From: an uncultured Gammaproteobacteria bacterium
Lineage (GTDB): Bacteria > Pseudomonadota > Gammaproteobacteria > Steroidobacterales > Rariloculaceae
DNA length: 64,000 bases
NCBI GenBank assembly: GCA_963714705.1
Contig: CAVQPJ010000005.1
Span: 270,321 to 334,320, forward strand
Direction of reading: 5' to 3'
Shown here piece by piece: positions 52,567-64,000 of this stretch; the stretch's first letter is position 1; each line of letters begins with the position of its first letter. The notes beneath the pieces are model-generated. The model did not search any database and was not told where the DNA came from. It saw only the letters and a program-made list of their open reading frames with translations. A program made the position numbers and the translations under genes.

Positions 52567-55500
52567 TCAGCGCACGCGAATGCGAAACTCGACGCTGAAG
52601 CTCGGGTCGTTGCCGCTCGCGGCGCCGGCCATCGCGCCGCTCGGCGCGATGCGCAGCGCCGTGACGTTCGGATCGACACCGTTACCGTTCGGCACGGGCA
52701 CGTAGTTGTACGGCGGCGCACCGCCTGGCTGGTTCGAGAACGTCACGTTCGTCGCGTAGTTGAACGTCAAGCCGCTCGGCACGGCGCCGTCGACGAATTG
52801 CACCGGATCCCGGGGCCGCCCGCGACGACGAGCTCGGCGTTCGCCGGCACGACGTCGGCGATCACGAGCGTGCTCGCGTCGACCGTGCCGACGCCGGTGT
52901 TCGTCACCGTCACGCGGTAGCGCTGCACGCTGCCGGGAATCTGCCGCGGATTGACGGCGCCGTTGATGGGATCGGACACCACGTCGACGGTCTTCGTCAC
53001 GCGCAGCGCGGGCAGCGTCGGCAGCACGACGAAGCCGTCGACGCGCATATCCGTCACGATGCCCTCGGTGCCTTCGACGCCCGTGACTTGCGCCGTCCAG
53101 CCGCCCGGCGGCGCGCCCGCCGGAAGCGACGTACGCGTATTCGTAGGTGCGCGTCGCGGCGCCCGAATCGGCGACCATCGCCATCGCCGCGTTCGCGACC
53201 CGCACGACGGACTGCCGGATCGATGATCGAGATGCGCGCCGACGCGATGTCGAAGCTGCCGAACGGATCGCTGATGACGGCGCGCACGTAGACGGTGCTG
53301 CCGAGCGCGAAGCTCGCTTGCGCAGCACCGCCGCTGTACGCCGCGCTGAACGTCTGCACGCTGTCGACGTTGATGACGGTCGCGCTGTTCAGCAACGACG
53401 CGGCTGAAGTTGCCGGCCGTCGCGCCGACGGGATAGACGAGCGTCGTGCGCGCCGGCGATGTTCGGCGCCGTCTGCGTGATCGTGACGCCGGAACGCCGA
53501 GCCCACGGGGAACGTCCGTCGCCGTGGGATTCGGGATCACGAACGTCGCGAGCGCGGGCGAGCCCGAGCGAGGGCAGCGTCGTCAGCGTCTGCGTCGCGC
53601 TGCCGATCGTGCCGGTGACCGTGTTCGCGAGCGTCACCTGCACCGTGCGCGCTGTTCGTGCCGGTGTTGTCGACTTGCGCCGCAGCCAGAGCGGCACGGT
53701 GATGTTGCCGCCCGGCAGCGTCAGGGGCAGCGCGAGCGTCGGCGTCAACGTCCAGACGACCGGCGTGCCGAACGCGACGGTGACGGCCGCGTCCGTACCC
53801 GGCGGATTACGCGACAACGCCACCGCCGGGCGTGCTGCGCAGGTACAACGGCTTCGAGCCCGACGACGGAATCGCCGACGGCGATACGATGAGCGTGCGG
53901 CGCCGCCGGCGTCGCGCCGGGGCCGCCGGGATTCGTGTCACCGTCGCGGTGTTGTCGATCGGCGTCGCGGGCGGCGTGCCGGCCGCGATGCGCGCGTCGA
54001 ACACGATCGTGACGCTGCCGTTCGCGGGCACGGCGATGTTGCGAACGTTGACGCGGCCCGTGCCGTTCGCGCCCGTGCCGGCGCCCGTCGACGCGTCGAC
54101 GGCGCCGGCCGGAATGCTCACGACCGCTGAGGTAGCCCGAGCTCGGCGGCGAGATCGTCGACGACGCTGACGCCCGTCGCGGCGACACCGGCCGACTCGA
54201 CGAGCGTGATCGTGTAGCGCAAGCGTGTCGCCAGGTTCCGGCTCGCCGCCGTTCAAGTCGACGACCGTCTTCGTCGACGTCGAGAGATTCGGGCCCGACG
54301 ACGACGGTGCGTCGGTCGCCGTGTTGTTCGCGGCGTTCACGTCGAAGCTCGCGCTCGTCACCGACGCCGTGTTCGTGACGCTCGGCACGGCGGCGCCGCG
54401 TCGCCGCGACCGTCAGCGCGATCGGCGGCAACGAGCTGCCGGAATTCGAGCGTCGGCGGATGCGTGCACGTGACGATCTGACCGGCAGCGCCGCACGCCC
54501 AGCCCGTGCCGACGCCGCTGACGAACGTGAGCCCCGCCGGCAACGTGTCCGTCACGACGACGGTGTTGTCCTCGCGCTGGTTGCCGGCCAGCGTTCGCAA
54601 CCGTCAGCGTGTAGACGTTGGTGCCGCCGACCGTGAAGTTGCCGATGTGCGTCTTCGTCAGCGACAAGATCGACGACAGGCTCGCTCGTCGCGCTGACGA
54701 TCTGCGCCGTCAGCAGCACGAGGTCGCCGCCGGCCGAGAACTGCGTCGTCGCCGACGTCTGACCCGGCGTCGAGCAGCGCCGTGACGTCGAACGTGTCGA
54801 CGTCGACGCCGTAGCTCGTCGCAACACCAGCCGTGTTGACGGTGCCGTCGTACGGTTGGATCGACGGGTCGCTGCCGGGGACGACGATGCCGTCGTCGAC
54901 GGCGGTGCCGTTGAAGCGCAGCACCTCGCTGAAGCCGTTCAGCGGCGTCGAGTTGCCGGGGTCGCCCTCCCACGCGACGATCGTCATGCGGCCGTCGAAG
55001 TTCGTCGGCGGAATCCGGAACCCGTCGGGATTCAATGTCAACGCGCTGCCGCGGAAGAACTGCAAGCCGTCGAACACGTTGACGGCGCGCAGGCGCTCGT
55101 TCACCGAGCCGTAGATCGCGACGACGCTCCAGCCCGCGGCGACGGCGCTGCTGCCGCAATGCGGCGCGCCGGTCGTGACGGTGAGGCCCGAGAAGGTCAG
55201 CGTGCCGTTGCCCGTAATGCGCGCTCGTGATGTCGGCGAAGCCGCCGAAGTACGGAAAGTTCGTGCCGCCGTTGTTGAACGTCGCCGCGAACGTGCGCTG
55301 CGCCGTGACGGCCTGCGCCGTTCAGCGTGACGTTCGTGTCGACGGTGGCGCCGGAGCCGCCCCAGTACAGATACGCGGCGACGATCGACGCGCCGGCCGG
55401 AATGCCGGTCGAGCGCTTGCGTGCTCGACGTGCCGACGGCGCACGCGTCACCGGTGCTCGGCTGCGTGCGCAGCGAGCCGCCCGTCGCGACGAAGTTGAT

Positions 55501-61600: not shown

Positions 61601-64000
61601 AGCGTGCGGCTCGACCGTGAACGGCCGACCCGTCAGCGAGCTGTACTTCGACGGCACGGAGCCGAACGCCGCGAAGACGGTGGCCCTGAGCCGCTGGCGC
61701 GGCGTCGACCTCGTCGCCGGCGACAACCGGCTCGTCGCGACCGTCGTCGACGCGGCCGGCGACGAGATCGCCGTGCTCGAGCGCATCGTGCGCTACGGCG
61801 GCGGCGGCGTGCGCGCGGAGCTCGTCGCCGAGGAGTCGCAGCTCACGGCCGACGGCCGCACGCAGCCCGTCGATCGCGCTGCGCGTCTTCGACGCGTCGG
61901 GCGAGCCCGCGCGACCCGGCACGCTCGGCGCCTATCGCGTCGATCCGCCGTATCGCACGTGGTGGGAAGTCGAGACGCTGCACGACAATCCGCTGCTCGT
62001 CGAAAGCCGCCGCGAGCCGACGTTCGCCGTCGAGGAGGACGGCCTCGTGCGCATCCTGCTCGAGCCGACCGCGCAAACCGGCACGGCCGTCGTGCGGCTG
62101 CGCTTCAACGAGCGCCAGGAGCAGGAGATCCGCGCGTGGCTCGAGCCCGAGCAGCGCGACTGGATCCTGGTCGGCATCGCCGAAAGCACGGCCGCCTACA
62201 ACGACGCTCGAGGCGCGCGCTCGAGCCGCCGGACGTCGAGGACGGCTACTCGAGCGACGGTCGGCTCGCGTTCTTCGCGAAGGGCCGCATCAAGGGCTCG
62301 ACGCTGCTGACGATCGCGTTCGACTCGGAGCGCGACCGGCCGCTCGTCGAGGACCGCCTGTTCGGCACGATCGAGCCCGACCGCTACTACACGCTGTACG
62401 GCGACGCCGTCGAGCAACGCTTCGAGGCCGTCGACGACGCGCAAGCTGTATCTGAAGATCGAGCGGCGCCAGTTCGCGGCGCTGTTCGGCGACTTCGAGA
62501 CCGGGCTTCACGTCACGGAGCTCAGCCGCTACAGCCGCACCCTCACGGGCTTCAAGGCCGACTTCGGCGGCGACGTCTTCGCGCGTCAACGCGTTCGCGG
62601 CCGAGAACCGCGAGCGTTACGGCCGCGACGAGTTCCTGGGCGACGGCACGTCGGGACCGTATCAGCTGTCGCGCACGGCGCTCGTCGCGAACAGCGATCG
62701 GCTGCGCATCGAGGTCCGCGACCGCGTGCGCAGCGAGGTCGTCGTCGAGTCGCGCGAGCTGACGCGCTTCATCGACTACAGCCTCGACTACTTCACCGGG
62801 CACGCTGACGTTCAAGCAGCCGGTCCCGAGCCGCGACTCCGCGTTCAACCCCGTCTTCATCATCGCCGAGTACGAGACGCTTGGACGGCGCGGCCGGCGG
62901 CACGACGGCCGGCGCGCGCGCGACGGCGCGGCTCGCCGACGACAAGCTCGAGCTCGGCGCGACGCTCGTCAACGAAGGCTCCGACGGTCGGCGACACGCG
63001 GCTCGCGGGCACCGACCTGCGCTTCCGGCCCGACCGGCGCGCTCGAGTGCGCGCCGAGATCGCGCAGACGGATTCCGCGATCCGACTGCGCGCGCCGACG
63101 CGCGTCGGCCTACCTCGCCGAGGTCGAGCACGTGACGGAGCGGCTCGACCTCGCAAGCCTACGTGCGCGAGCAGGAAGCCGGGCTTCGGCGTCGGCCAGC
63201 AGCTCGCGCACCGAGACGGGCACGCGCAAGGTCGGCGTCGACGCGCGCAGCGACGCTGACGGAGCTCTGGACGGCGCGCGGCGAAGCGTTCCGGCAGACG
63301 AACCTGCAGACGGGCGCCGACCGCGAGCTCGTCTCGGCCGAAGCGCGCCGCGAGACCGACGACGCGACGGCGAGCGTCGGCGTCAGGCGCGTCGTCGACG
63401 ACTTGCCGCAGAGCGGCACGCAGCAGCTCCGAGCTCCTGAGCCTTGGGCGGCAGCCTCGACGTGCTGCGACGACCGCGTGACGCTGCGCGCGCTGACGGA
63501 GCAGTCGCTTGGGCGTCCGGCCGCGAGCCTCGACTTCCCCGAGCGCACGGCGCTCGGCCTCGACTATCACCTGTCGGGCGCGACGACGCTGTTCGCCGAG
63601 ATCGAGGACGCGCAAGGCGCGCAGATCGACTCGACGATGACGCGCGTCGGCGTGCGCAGCACGCCGTGGTCGGGCTCGCAGGTCTCCGTCGAGCGTGAAC
63701 CGCGAGTTCGGCGAGTACGGGCCGCGCGTGTTCGCGAACGTCGGGCTCACGCAGACGTTCAAGGTCGGCGAGGCGTGGGCGATGGACGTCGGCGTCGACC
63801 GCAGCGACACGGTGACGGGCGCCGACGCCGAGCGGTTCAACCCGAACGTGCCGCTCGTGATCGGCGCCATCGGCGACGACTTCCTCGCGACCTTCGTCGG
63901 CGCGCAGTACCGCGCCGACCTCTGGACGATCACGTCGCGCGTCGAGCGGCGCGACTCCGACCTCGCGGAGCGCCGGTCGTTCACGAGCGGCTTCTACCGC
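58622..64000 (+). CDS. Giant envelope protein (more than 1790 aa, 3-prime end beyond window): beta-sandwich (DUF11/Cna-B/carboxypeptidase-regulatory-like) repeats, internal OmpA-like domain, long beta-rich C-terminal region; heavily frame-interrupted
   Basis: Stitched pieces: PPGTPIANRAEV.FIGSAGP...[205 protein letters not shown]. Then the OmpA-like block, then VRAELVAEESQLTADGRTQPV...RILLEPTAQTGTAVVRLRFNERQEQEIRAWLEPEQRDWILVGIAE...DGRLAFFAKGRIKGSTLLTIAFDSERDRPLVEDRLFGTIEPDRYYTLYGDAVEQRFEA...VVVESRELTRFIDYSLDYFTG... Confidence 0.6.
60948..61325 (+). other. OmpA-like (peptidoglycan-associating) domain inside the giant protein
   Basis: Stitched from three frames: SYTFSPRYNAYSFAPQFGPMQTQVDPRDGAELERIAADWRGMRDLTIQV / IGHADQHTYLGAQSRH / RFPDNYALSAARAQAVADYLRAALPDG / RIEIEGRGADEPVAAGHG / SLARNRRVEIEV. 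This matches the OmpA_C pattern GH(T/A)D...N..LS..RA..V..YL...G.G...P...NRRVEI. Confidence 0.7.

Follow-up and report, generated by a model that had tools for sequence, protein, structure and literature searches.

Secreted proteins carrying complementary fragments of a CLIPPER domain: a candidate envelope-fiber module of Gammaproteobacteria

We analyzed a 64,000-nucleotide stretch of DNA from an uncultured gammaproteobacterium of the Rariloculaceae (GenBank assembly GCA_963714705.1, contig CAVQPJ010000005.1, positions 270,321 to 334,320; hereafter the window, whose own numbering is used throughout), concentrating on five neighboring genes at 52567-64000, here termed A to E. An earlier, model-generated reading of the letters (the original prediction) had described this locus as a candidate uncharacterized surface-fiber or adhesin assembly system built from secreted proteins. 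Gene E (52567-55607) lies on the minus strand, while genes A (55798-56837), B (56866-57378), C (57450-58604) and D (58626-64000) follow one another on the plus strand, and each feature described below lies on the strand of its gene. As had been described, the two divergent units are separated by a 190-bp spacer of lower GC content (55608-55797; 61% GC compared with 70-72% on either side). The proposed gene sizes also hold after frame correction: approximately 1016 amino acids for E, as a reconstruction, approximately 346 for A, 170 for B, approximately 386 for C, and more than 1790 for the visible part of D, which is cut by the window end and whose orthologs comprise approximately 1990 amino acids. 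The start codon of D is uncertain owing to frameshifts.

The five genes had been presented as such in the original prediction, and they are real in the sense that Povalibacter uvarum DSM 26723 encodes intact orthologs; in the window, however, none of them is an intact open reading frame (ORF). In this DNA, with a GC content of approximately 68%, the reading frame of these genes shifts about every 90 nt: between 52.3 and 64 kb the frame with high GC at third codon positions (GC3) switches every 100-300 nt, recognizable protein hops among all three frames in stop-to-stop translations, and tblastn with homologs that are 82-87% identical to the reconstructed query tiles the window in three frames. 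Plain ORF calling, which yields no long correct ORFs here, was inadequate, and we used a codon-bias dynamic programme that permits frame jumps. To follow the genes, it had to change frame approximately 94 times between 55.7 and 64 kb on the plus strand and approximately 39 times between 52.3 and 55.8 kb on the minus strand, with about 33 shifts inferred for E, 9 for A and 17 for C; these counts are estimates, as the programme over-calls shifts somewhat. The same frame noise, at about 8 jumps per kb, extends across most of the 64 kb. Inside the frame segments, GC3 is 0.8-0.97 and amino acid identity to homologs 50-90%, with no build-up of stop codons in the correct frame, and related ENA contigs (P0005, P0041, P0060, P0084) likewise contain out-of-frame Arg-rich stretches. 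Because codon bias and homolog identity are kept, the noise affects most of the window, related contigs behave alike and intact orthologs exist, we read the indels as assembly or sequencing error and not as gene decay. Protein-level statements in the following refer to frame-corrected reconstructions, which were compared with intact orthologs.

Frameshifts are not spread evenly. Over most of the window the coding strand requires approximately 7-14 of them per kb, and clean stretches occur at 9676-14148, at 48323-50272 and in parts of 24-25 kb and 30 kb, a pattern suggesting that the source assembly was polished only in part or had uneven read support.

Each of the five proteins has a Sec signal peptide and is assigned DUF11/TIGR01451 domains by Pfam and NCBIfam, in agreement with the DUF11-type modules that had been attributed to the locus. 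In the window, PF01345 is matched by E (62 bits) and D (40.7 bits), and TIGR01451 by A (38.8 bits), B (29.9 bits) and C (24.1 bits, at a cut-off of 24). The intact Povalibacter proteins B, C and D score 29.1, 29.3 and 39.1 bits on DUF11 (cut-off 24.6), while A stays below the Pfam cut-off (16.6-16.9 bits). The E reconstruction from the window additionally scores 31 bits on TIGR04226 (RrgB D2). DUF11 was recently renamed CLIPPER and shown to be CnaA-like and to form an isopeptide bond between Lys and Asn autocatalytically, with an Asp as the catalyst (PMC12617251).

The original prediction had pointed out an N-terminal strand motif and FRV.IN-type C-terminal ends that are shared by several of the proteins. 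We located both, the ends at 56811-56834 in A, 58578-58601 in C and 52570-52596 in E, and found both to be conserved in 60-70 orthologs, so that they are not due to chance. Judged by sequence, the two motifs are complementary halves of a single CLIPPER domain. The complete domain of Povalibacter D, which covers positions 4-110 of the 114 positions of the DUF11 profile, contains Lys, Asp and an Asn-bearing strand in the order LFMRK ... IVDRLP ... FVNTARAS. The C-terminal domains of A, C and E keep the Lys (AVKSQ, LTVTK, LRVTK) and the Asp (VTDSIP and similar) and then stop one strand short, with FRVTIN as the last residues, after about profile position 84; in Povalibacter C, for example, the C-terminal domain corresponds to positions 8-84 of 114, upon which the protein ends. 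A complete Lys/Asp/Asn triad on one segment is found only in internal domains of D and E. The missing "l.NtA.v" strand, together with one more strand, is found instead at the mature N-termini of A, C and D (AGTsIxNTAtVxYxvGG...SNxVxV), where it begins 2-6 residues past the predicted signal-peptidase site. In chaperone-usher pilins the donor strand likewise lies at the mature N-terminus, as it does in the subunits of archaeal threads.

In the window, A consists of a signal peptide, a donor hairpin (55928-55978) in which Ser replaces the Asn, a middle beta-sandwich of the TNTGN type and, at 56514-56834, an acceptor domain that has its Lys in ISAVK, its Asp in FNDPIP and FRVTIN as its last residues. 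C has the same arrangement: after the signal peptide follow a donor hairpin with its Asn present (57552-57602, AGTSIQNRATVNYSVGG) and a middle TNTGN domain. Its acceptor domain, at 58227-58601, contains the Lys in LTVTK and the Asp in IAISDPIP and closes with FRVRIN. The donor hairpin of D (58826-58929, with the N-terminal motif PPGTPIANRAE at 58826-58858) directly follows its signal peptide, and farther downstream D has a complete CLIPPER domain (59830-60165; DUF11 40.7 bits, profile 10-114 of 114) in which Lys, Asp and an Asn strand (STLVNRATA) are all present. E begins with a signal peptide and a DUF3344 head. Next come a pair of complete CLIPPER domains and additional beta-sandwich domains, and the protein closes with a truncated acceptor domain (52567-53006). 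The Lys of this acceptor lies in LRVTK (52959-53006) and its Asp in LVIADVVP (52827-52868), and the protein ends in FRIRVR, without the Asn-bearing last strand. B consists of a signal peptide plus a single truncated CLIPPER-like domain that lacks a donor strand and the conserved Lys; Asn replaces the catalytic acid (ITNPVP, 57131-57148), and the protein ends in RYRATVL.

Conservation of the candidate residues separates the families by role. In C (n=63), the donor Asn, the acceptor Lys and the acidic residue are each present in 63 of 63 sequences. In D (n=72), the donor motif PPGtvIxNxAxVxY...SNxVxV is nearly universal, with the Asn, as judged by eye, missing only in two loci (L039 and L080). 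The E-like proteins (n=17) all have the Lys and the Asp (17/17 each) and all end in FRVRV[NQKLR], and none has the N-terminal donor motif (0/17). A (n=62) keeps the Lys in 62 and the Asp in 61 sequences, the donor Asn in 47. The B family (n=59) ends one strand short as well (...RFRAxL), with Asn at the catalytic-acid column in 55 of 59 sequences, a Lys that aligns in 21 of 59, and no donor motif. E is therefore an acceptor only, as is B, which lacks the cross-link residues; D is a donor only, and A and C combine the two roles. The original prediction had regarded the three small proteins as subunit-like paralogs, a description that fits A and C but not B, with its single truncated domain devoid of cross-linking residues. 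When D is searched with a hidden Markov model (HMM) of the acceptor domain, nothing is recovered but the complete CLIPPER domain and, weakly, one more internal match, so that D's donor strand has no evident partner inside D itself. Given that E only accepts and D only donates, at least one pairing between molecules would be needed.

In 15 of 62 genomes, including Povalibacter, and also in the window, Ser, Gly or Thr stands in place of A's donor Asn. These 15 proteins are diverse (41-96% mutual identity, median 53%), and all of them keep the acceptor Lys and Asp; for this reason, A's own strand is an unlikely partner for its Lys, which argues that the partner would be the strand of another protein. 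The joint that A's strand would form may be deliberately non-covalent. The loci listed for the replacement are L007, L008, L012, L013, L015, L029-L038, L039, L074 and L075. Loss of the Asn in A tends to accompany a missing Lys in B (1/14 vs 20/44), an association that is confounded by phylogeny and was not used here.

The B family has a further peculiarity. A Cys follows the signal peptide (GC..L.T) in 33 of 59 members, the corresponding region of the window being 56964-56990, and a second Cys is seen by eye in a conserved NVC motif of the family consensus. These two residues could form a disulfide that pins the first strand, which would fit folding in the periplasm.

A signature of strand complementation or isopeptide chemistry, a possibility raised in the original prediction, is thus present and unusually clean with respect to the truncation, the donor strand and the conservation of Lys, Asp and Asn. 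It was also examined with chimeras, in which strands were appended to the acceptor domain of Povalibacter C and the products rescored on Pfam profiles. The acceptor alone scores 34.2 bits on DUF11 (profile 8-84). With its own N-terminal strand appended, the score rises to 36.9 bits and the match extends to position 98; with D's strand, the values are 38.2 bits and position 100. Similarly, the score on DUF7619 increases from 18.1 to 23.6 bits with the own strand and to 22.7 bits with D's strand, the match reaching profile position 118 of 133, and DUF7927 is matched with up to 21.7 bits when D's strand is added. A shuffled strand gives no gain (33.9 bits on DUF11, 17.8 bits on DUF7619). When a donor strand is appended to B, its DUF11 score rises from 29.1 to 35.7 bits (+6.6) and the match from profile 11-71 to 11-98.

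A model of a C homolog (P0099) was computed with AlphaFold2 (AF2) from an alignment of 49 sequences and reached a predicted local distance difference test score (pLDDT) of 90.8 and a predicted template-modeling score (pTM) of 0.75. The predicted structure shows the N-terminal extension of C packed onto a domain, and does not tell pairing within the molecule from pairing between molecules. In Foldseek searches, the model matches generic tandem Ig/beta-sandwich domains, such as those of integrin legs, while Saf and CFA/I pilins, AgI/II and Cnm are found at template-modeling (TM) scores of 0.33 or lower.

For the giant protein D, a combination of a peptidoglycan-binding domain with a very large beta-rich C-terminal region had been proposed, and both parts are supported. 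An OmpA-like domain (61071-61327, GHAD ... NRRVEIEV, the latter at 61298-61327) matches PF00691 with 41.3 bits in the window and 46.1 bits in Povalibacter (cut-off 27.2) and contains the NRRVEI motif, so that by profile and motif D appears to carry a peptidoglycan-binding domain of this type. Matches of D to PDB sequences are confined to the OmpA-like region (TssL1 4b62, PA0833 and the domains of OmpA, Pal and MotB), apart from a single marginal one (E 0.94, no passing stretch). Upstream of the OmpA-like domain lies a profile match to a beta-sandwich of the CarboxypepD_reg/SdrD_B type (60295-60399), and downstream an Ig-like spacer (61500-62440; ADGRTxPVIALR, AFFAKGxIKG), which is conserved and belongs to no Pfam family. 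The final region begins at 62446 and is visible up to 64000, the window ending approximately 200 residues short of the stop codon. For the last approximately 1000 residues of D, searches of Pfam, NCBIfam and PDB sequences returned no family. However, the AF2 model of a 699-residue C-terminal fragment that is 83% identical (P0079; alignment of 20 sequences, pLDDT 80) has a small beta domain followed by 32 consecutive antiparallel strands of 10-17 residues each. The C-terminus of D is accordingly predicted to form a giant outer-membrane beta-barrel of at least 32 strands. Foldseek relates this barrel to large outer-membrane barrels only, none of them close (TM <=0.37): query TM-scores (TMq) are 0.37 for SlpA, 0.30 for SprA and 0.27 for the FimD usher, and LptD, MtrB and TonB-dependent receptors are found as well.

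To judge how widespread the arrangement is, one genome per GTDB species was scanned, which gave 599 pattern matches, 578 of them confirmed by tblastn, from which the best 80 loci were retrieved. Among these is the intact five-gene locus of the cultured Povalibacter uvarum DSM 26723 (L007), with an E-like protein of 852 amino acids encoded on the opposite strand and A, B, C and D of 363, 177, 373 and 1988 amino acids, respectively. Tblastn and ORF extraction revealed the order A-B-C-D, tightly packed, in more than 60 of the 80 loci, which derive from Steroidobacteraceae, Povalibacter, Woeseiaceae, Lysobacterales and other Gammaproteobacteria. The co-occurrence of five genes envisaged in the original prediction hence applies to A-B-C-D, whereas E is optional, an E-like gene being found only in a subset of the Povalibacter/Steroidobacter type. 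All-against-all clustering of the ORFs from the 80 loci likewise delimits a conserved module, whose members are A and C as one family (in 68 loci), B (in 67) and D (in 79). In some variant loci (L016, L022, L041, L043) B-C-D occur without a separate A, and in three of these a DUF3344-type E lies upstream.

The genes conserved downstream of the module encode a DEAD/Helicase_C_2 helicase, a TsaD-family protein and proteins with PhoR, PhoU and response-regulator domains, which look like housekeeping synteny. In the same clustering, no chaperone, usher, sortase or peptidase accompanies the module, and searches of Pfam and NCBIfam found no family of type V (Bacteroidia) pili, type IV pili, type V secretion systems or type I secretion systems in the five proteins or their conserved neighbors. 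The hallmarks of these systems would be lipoprotein pilin precursors for type V pili, a prepilin leader with PilB/PilC for type IV pili, an autotransporter or intimin barrel of 12-16 strands for type V secretion, and RTX repeats with ABC, MFP and TolC components for type I secretion. The absence of recognizable assembly components, which the original prediction had reported for the 11.4 kb it saw, is therefore also seen at the level of profiles and conserved neighborhoods.

Relatives of the individual proteins are numerous. For the part of D that follows the OmpA-like domain, close relatives occur in Steroidobacteraceae, Povalibacter, Burkholderiaceae, Deltaproteobacteria and metagenome-assembled genomes (MAGs) of Desulfobulbaceae; they are labeled only generically (hypothetical, OmpA family, DUF11-containing) or carry no label, and in the word-indexed protein database they are found only as pieces of approximately 820 amino acids or less. 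A profile of the C-terminus of D matches 4791, 3700 and 2511 clusters at 50% identity with E<=1e-3, 1e-10 and 1e-30, respectively, mostly proteins of 1.8-2.4 thousand residues in which the match lies at the C-terminus. For the C family, the databases contain at least 2703 relatives; those with a source name are called only "uncharacterized repeat protein (TIGR01451)", "conserved repeat domain" or "hypothetical protein". The system as a whole had been proposed to be uncharacterized, and profile, PDB-sequence and fold searches indeed matched no characterized pilus or secretion system; we also found no description of it in the literature, most subscription journals lying outside the coverage of that search.

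The optional protein E varies in its N-terminal part. Among 17 GTDB loci, at least three unrelated types of head sit on the same acceptor domain of approximately 150 amino acids: DUF3344 heads (L016, L019, L022, L041 and the window), SdrD_B domains combined with a right-handed beta-helix (L003-L015, L039), and others (L074, L028). The range of heads was judged from these 17 loci only, because a database search with the E acceptor returned nothing but fragments of 115-251 amino acids. The head of the window (approximately 54680-55530, with the motifs INFVATGGSLRTQP at 55459-55500 and AAYLYWGGSGA at 55347-55379) had been called lectin-like, a designation that we do not retain: searches of Pfam and PDB sequences gave no lectin match, and the head corresponds to DUF3344, a domain of unknown function. 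PF11824 (DUF3344) matches the intact ortholog L019, which has the same type of head, with 32.3 bits (cut-off 27.2; profile 8-274 of 275); the frame-broken head of the window itself gives no DUF3344 match. Swapped heads on one acceptor are the pattern expected for interchangeable tip adhesins. E is thus an optional extra with interchangeable heads, outside the conserved A-B-C-D core.

We propose that these proteins form an envelope fiber, assembled head to tail by donor-strand complementation and possibly locked by isopeptide bonds, with E or B at the tip and D as the anchor, and assign a probability of roughly 0.5 to this reading. A and C would be the fiber subunits, and the N-terminal hairpin of one subunit would complete the C-terminal domain of the preceding one. 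Each joint would in this way recreate a complete CLIPPER domain, and the fiber would resemble the alternating-domain rod of a tandem-repeat adhesin, distributed across several polypeptides. Where the donated strand contains the Asn, as do those of C and D, the joint could lock spontaneously through a Lys-Asn isopeptide bond, in the manner of a natural SpyTag/SpyCatcher pair. E would be found at the distal tip only, because it combines a variable head with an acceptor domain and nothing to donate, while B could serve either as a non-covalent cap or as a chaperone for donor strands. From the tip, the order would be E or B, then A, several copies of C, and finally D, which would end the chain because it has a donor strand only, and whose Ig-like stalk, OmpA-like domain and barrel would fasten the fiber to the cell. 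The barrel is also the only conserved candidate for an outer-membrane conduit, through which the subunits might reach the cell surface. What the sequences themselves show is the domain content, the truncation, the conserved residues, the uneven distribution of donors and acceptors, the synteny and the lack of known assembly genes; intermolecular pairing, the covalent lock, the subunit order, location at the surface and passage through D are inferred. A more far-reaching version, namely that the module defines a new class of Gram-negative pili that dispenses with chaperone, usher and sortase, is held together by self-ligating split CnaA-type joints, presents swappable tips and is both exported and terminated by D, is put forward tentatively, and we regard it as rather doubtful.

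The main rival of the fiber is complementation within each molecule, without any polymer. A and C would then be monomeric two-domain envelope proteins in which the hairpin staples the protein's own CLIPPER domain, the middle domain being inserted as in RrgA; D would be a fibrillar adhesin or anchor, and E would at most dock once on D's N-terminal strand. Several observations count against the fiber and have to be weighed here. The gains in the chimeras are small (3-6 bits), and the domains of A and E, which match Pfam only weakly, gain nothing from appended strands. The AF2 monomer of the C homolog is a compact two-domain structure that is confident also for residues 31-60, its N-terminal extension having a pLDDT of more than 92, and it fits self-complementation equally well; yet AF2 monomer models tend to self-complement donor-strand subunits, so that this model does not discriminate between the two. 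RrgA, for example, shows that a CnaA-like domain can accommodate a large insert between its isopeptide residues; Gram-negative adhesins that combine a CLIPPER stalk with an OmpA-like anchor are known as well, for example Acinetobacter B9T28_05395; and the invariant Asn, Lys and Asp of C would fit a stapled monomer as well as a polymer. Furthermore, the roles given to B and the order of the subunits are read from the presence or absence of residues only, and in this window all five genes are frame-broken. What monomers account for less readily is the asymmetry of the set: with E accepting only and D donating only, one pairing between molecules would be needed anyway; most genomes lack E and still keep D's donor strand with its Asn; and 15 diverse genomes encode an A that has lost the Asn of its own strand but not the acceptor Lys and Asp. 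We therefore consider purely intramolecular complementation unlikely, while treating it as the explanation against which the fiber has to be measured.

A difficulty of another kind arises from the architecture of D, in which the OmpA-like domain sits between the N-terminal stalk and the barrel. A stalk exposed at the surface would have to thread D's own barrel, a topology without precedent, or else the fiber would be periplasmic. The latter arrangement is the basis of a second alternative, in which D ties the outer membrane to the peptidoglycan by means of its OmpA-like domain, spacer and giant barrel, by analogy with SlpA of Deinococcus, while its stalk and A, B and C, whether polymerized or not, form a structural or sensory lattice in the periplasm. 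That the OmpA-like domain, necessarily a periplasmic one, follows the stalk in the chain, that the best TM-score of the barrel in Foldseek is that to SlpA (0.37), and that no secretion system is linked to the module would all suit such a scaffold. However, heads like those of E (DUF3344, SdrD_B with beta-helix) and stalks of CLIPPER domains are features typically seen in surface adhesins, and a barrel of at least 32 strands is far beyond what anchoring requires and falls into the size class of translocons such as SprA and the ushers; we regard the scaffold as quite improbable. It might finally be argued, from some 130 frame changes over 11.4 kb and from the intact state of some other genes in the window (9676-14148, 48323-50272), that the locus is a decayed pseudogene cluster or an assembly artifact without function. 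So many real indels would have wiped out the codon bias and the identity to homologs, both of which are preserved; moreover, the same noise, at approximately 8 shifts per kb, affects most of the window, related ENA contigs contain the same out-of-frame Arg-rich stretches, and intact orthologs are abundant. This explanation is, in our view, very improbable indeed.

Should the fiber be correct, the module would represent a new assembly pathway beside the chaperone-usher, type IV, curli and type V pili of Gram-negative bacteria, and one that is abundant in Gammaproteobacteria of soil and marine sediment (Steroidobacterales, Woeseiales), with at least 578 matches in GTDB. It would also provide a naturally split, self-ligating isopeptide domain, which is relevant to protein-ligation technology, suggest a route from tandem-repeat adhesins to multi-subunit fibers, and assign a job to a family of very large unannotated outer-membrane barrels (>2,500 clusters at 50% identity). 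If the proteins complement themselves instead, the module would still be a conserved, uncharacterized envelope system, albeit much nearer to ordinary fibrillar adhesins.

Signals for expression were sought around the genes. The original prediction had assigned a strong ribosome-binding site to each of the small genes; those of B (AGGAGG) and C (AAGGAG) are strong, but that of A is weak, and D's is weak too. It had also taken the spacer for a promoter region, which our scans did not bear out, as no sigma-70-like or sigma-54-like promoter consensus was found in 55608-55797. A GC-rich stem-loop between B and C (57386-57428, plus strand) was considered as a signal and rejected: the minimum free energy of the whole segment, -25.3 kcal/mol, is no better than that of shuffled sequences (z = -1.2), and the structure is absent in Povalibacter, where the gap between B and C is 18 nt. 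In the window and in Povalibacter, the divergent E occupies the position upstream of A. In L001, a gammaproteobacterial locus (2331-4230; contig shared with L065, MAG MFD03551.bin.2.76), a sigma-54 enhancer-binding protein with GAF, AAA and HTH_8 domains lies directly upstream of A, and a T2SSE/MshE ATPase farther upstream. Regulation may differ between clades. Neighbor clustering showed no conserved module beyond A-D, the recurrence of T2SSE/MshE in other loci not having been specifically checked.

On the E side of the window, the neighbors are an intact peptidase of the prolyl-oligopeptidase family (S9; 48323-50272, minus strand) and a frame-broken oxidoreductase of the GFO/IDH/MocA type (50910-52205, plus strand). 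No comparable conserved upstream gene family was found in the 80 loci, in which the S9 peptidase and the oxidoreductase were not specifically searched for. Farther away, 9676-14148 (minus strand) is an intact ORF of 1490 amino acids with nine RHS repeats, the first approximately 200 residues of which correspond to the C-terminal third of 4-alpha-glucanotransferase (Glyco_hydro_77, profile 300-460 of 465); possible explanations are that two genes are read as one because a stop codon was lost or the frame is wrong, or that the sequences were joined chimerically.

Several elements of the proposal are not new: the CLIPPER family is known, as are CLIPPER adhesins of Gram-negative bacteria that are anchored by an OmpA-like domain, and both donor-strand complementation and the linkage of subunits by isopeptide bonds are established principles. 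What was not found in the literature or in the profile and fold libraries is the four-gene module, a CLIPPER domain split between proteins, and an anchor and barrel of the D type. None of the parts is homologous to those of chaperone-usher pili, archaeal threads or BsaA.

With regard to the C-terminus of D, the best structural matches are SlpA of Deinococcus and SprA of the type IX secretion system (TMq 0.37 and 0.30). SlpA combines a wall-binding domain (SLH), a coiled-coil spacer and a giant barrel. Neither protein has sequence similarity to D, however, and neither has an N-terminal Ig-like stalk or a donor strand. At the level of the domain, the module resembles B9T28_05395 of Acinetobacter silvestris (PDB 9IFR), which has the same domain family and the same Lys/Asp/Asn triad. 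In contrast to the module described here, it is a single polypeptide of complete domains with bonds inside the molecule, while the proteins encoded in these four or five genes have truncated terminal domains and carry the missing strand on the N-termini of their partners, and D adds approximately 1000 residues, including the giant barrel.

Sortase-assembled pili of Gram-positive bacteria (SpaA, RrgB, Spy0128) also use subunits of the CnaA/CnaB type, isopeptide chemistry and separate tip, shaft and base proteins, although for the module the covalent head-to-tail link is only proposed. No LPXTG signal, pilin motif or sortase is found in the module and the C-termini have no hydrophobic tail; its linkage would be autocatalytic, by means of a split domain, in a host with two membranes. 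Archaeal threads (Sulfolobus Saci_0406) and BsaA of C. perfringens (TasA family) are comparable in mode of assembly: for both, donor-strand exchange and isopeptide bonds between subunits have been reported, and they share with the proposed fiber secretion by Sec, polymerization without a chaperone and an N-terminal strand inserted into the neighbor. Their folds and families are unrelated and absent from our fold and sequence search results, they have no outer-membrane barrel as an anchor, and they do not come from Gram-negative bacteria. Threads are cross-linked from the N-terminal amine to an Asn, with the bond spanning subunits n and n+2, whereas here a Lys-Asn-Asp triad would be split between neighbors.

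Finally, the chaperone-usher pili differ from the module in their components. No PapD-like chaperone and no PF00577 usher is found in the five proteins or among the conserved neighbor families of the 80 loci; the subunits here are CnaA-like CLIPPER domains with isopeptide residues and not of the pilin fold; anchor, terminator and barrel are united in one polypeptide of approximately 2000 amino acids that includes an OmpA-like domain; and the predicted barrel of D has at least 32 strands compared with 24, its TM-score to FimD (0.27) being a generic barrel match. In organization, however, the two are alike, as both have an operon with several paralogous subunits. FimH, with its head and a pilin domain that only accepts, would correspond to E; FimA, with a donor extension and an Ig-like fold that lacks the last strand, would correspond to A and C; and FimI and FimD, a donor-bearing terminator at an outer-membrane barrel, would correspond to D. 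The subunit logic of the chaperone-usher order, FimH, FimG, FimF, many FimA and FimI, together with the FimD usher, thus parallels that of the proposed fiber.

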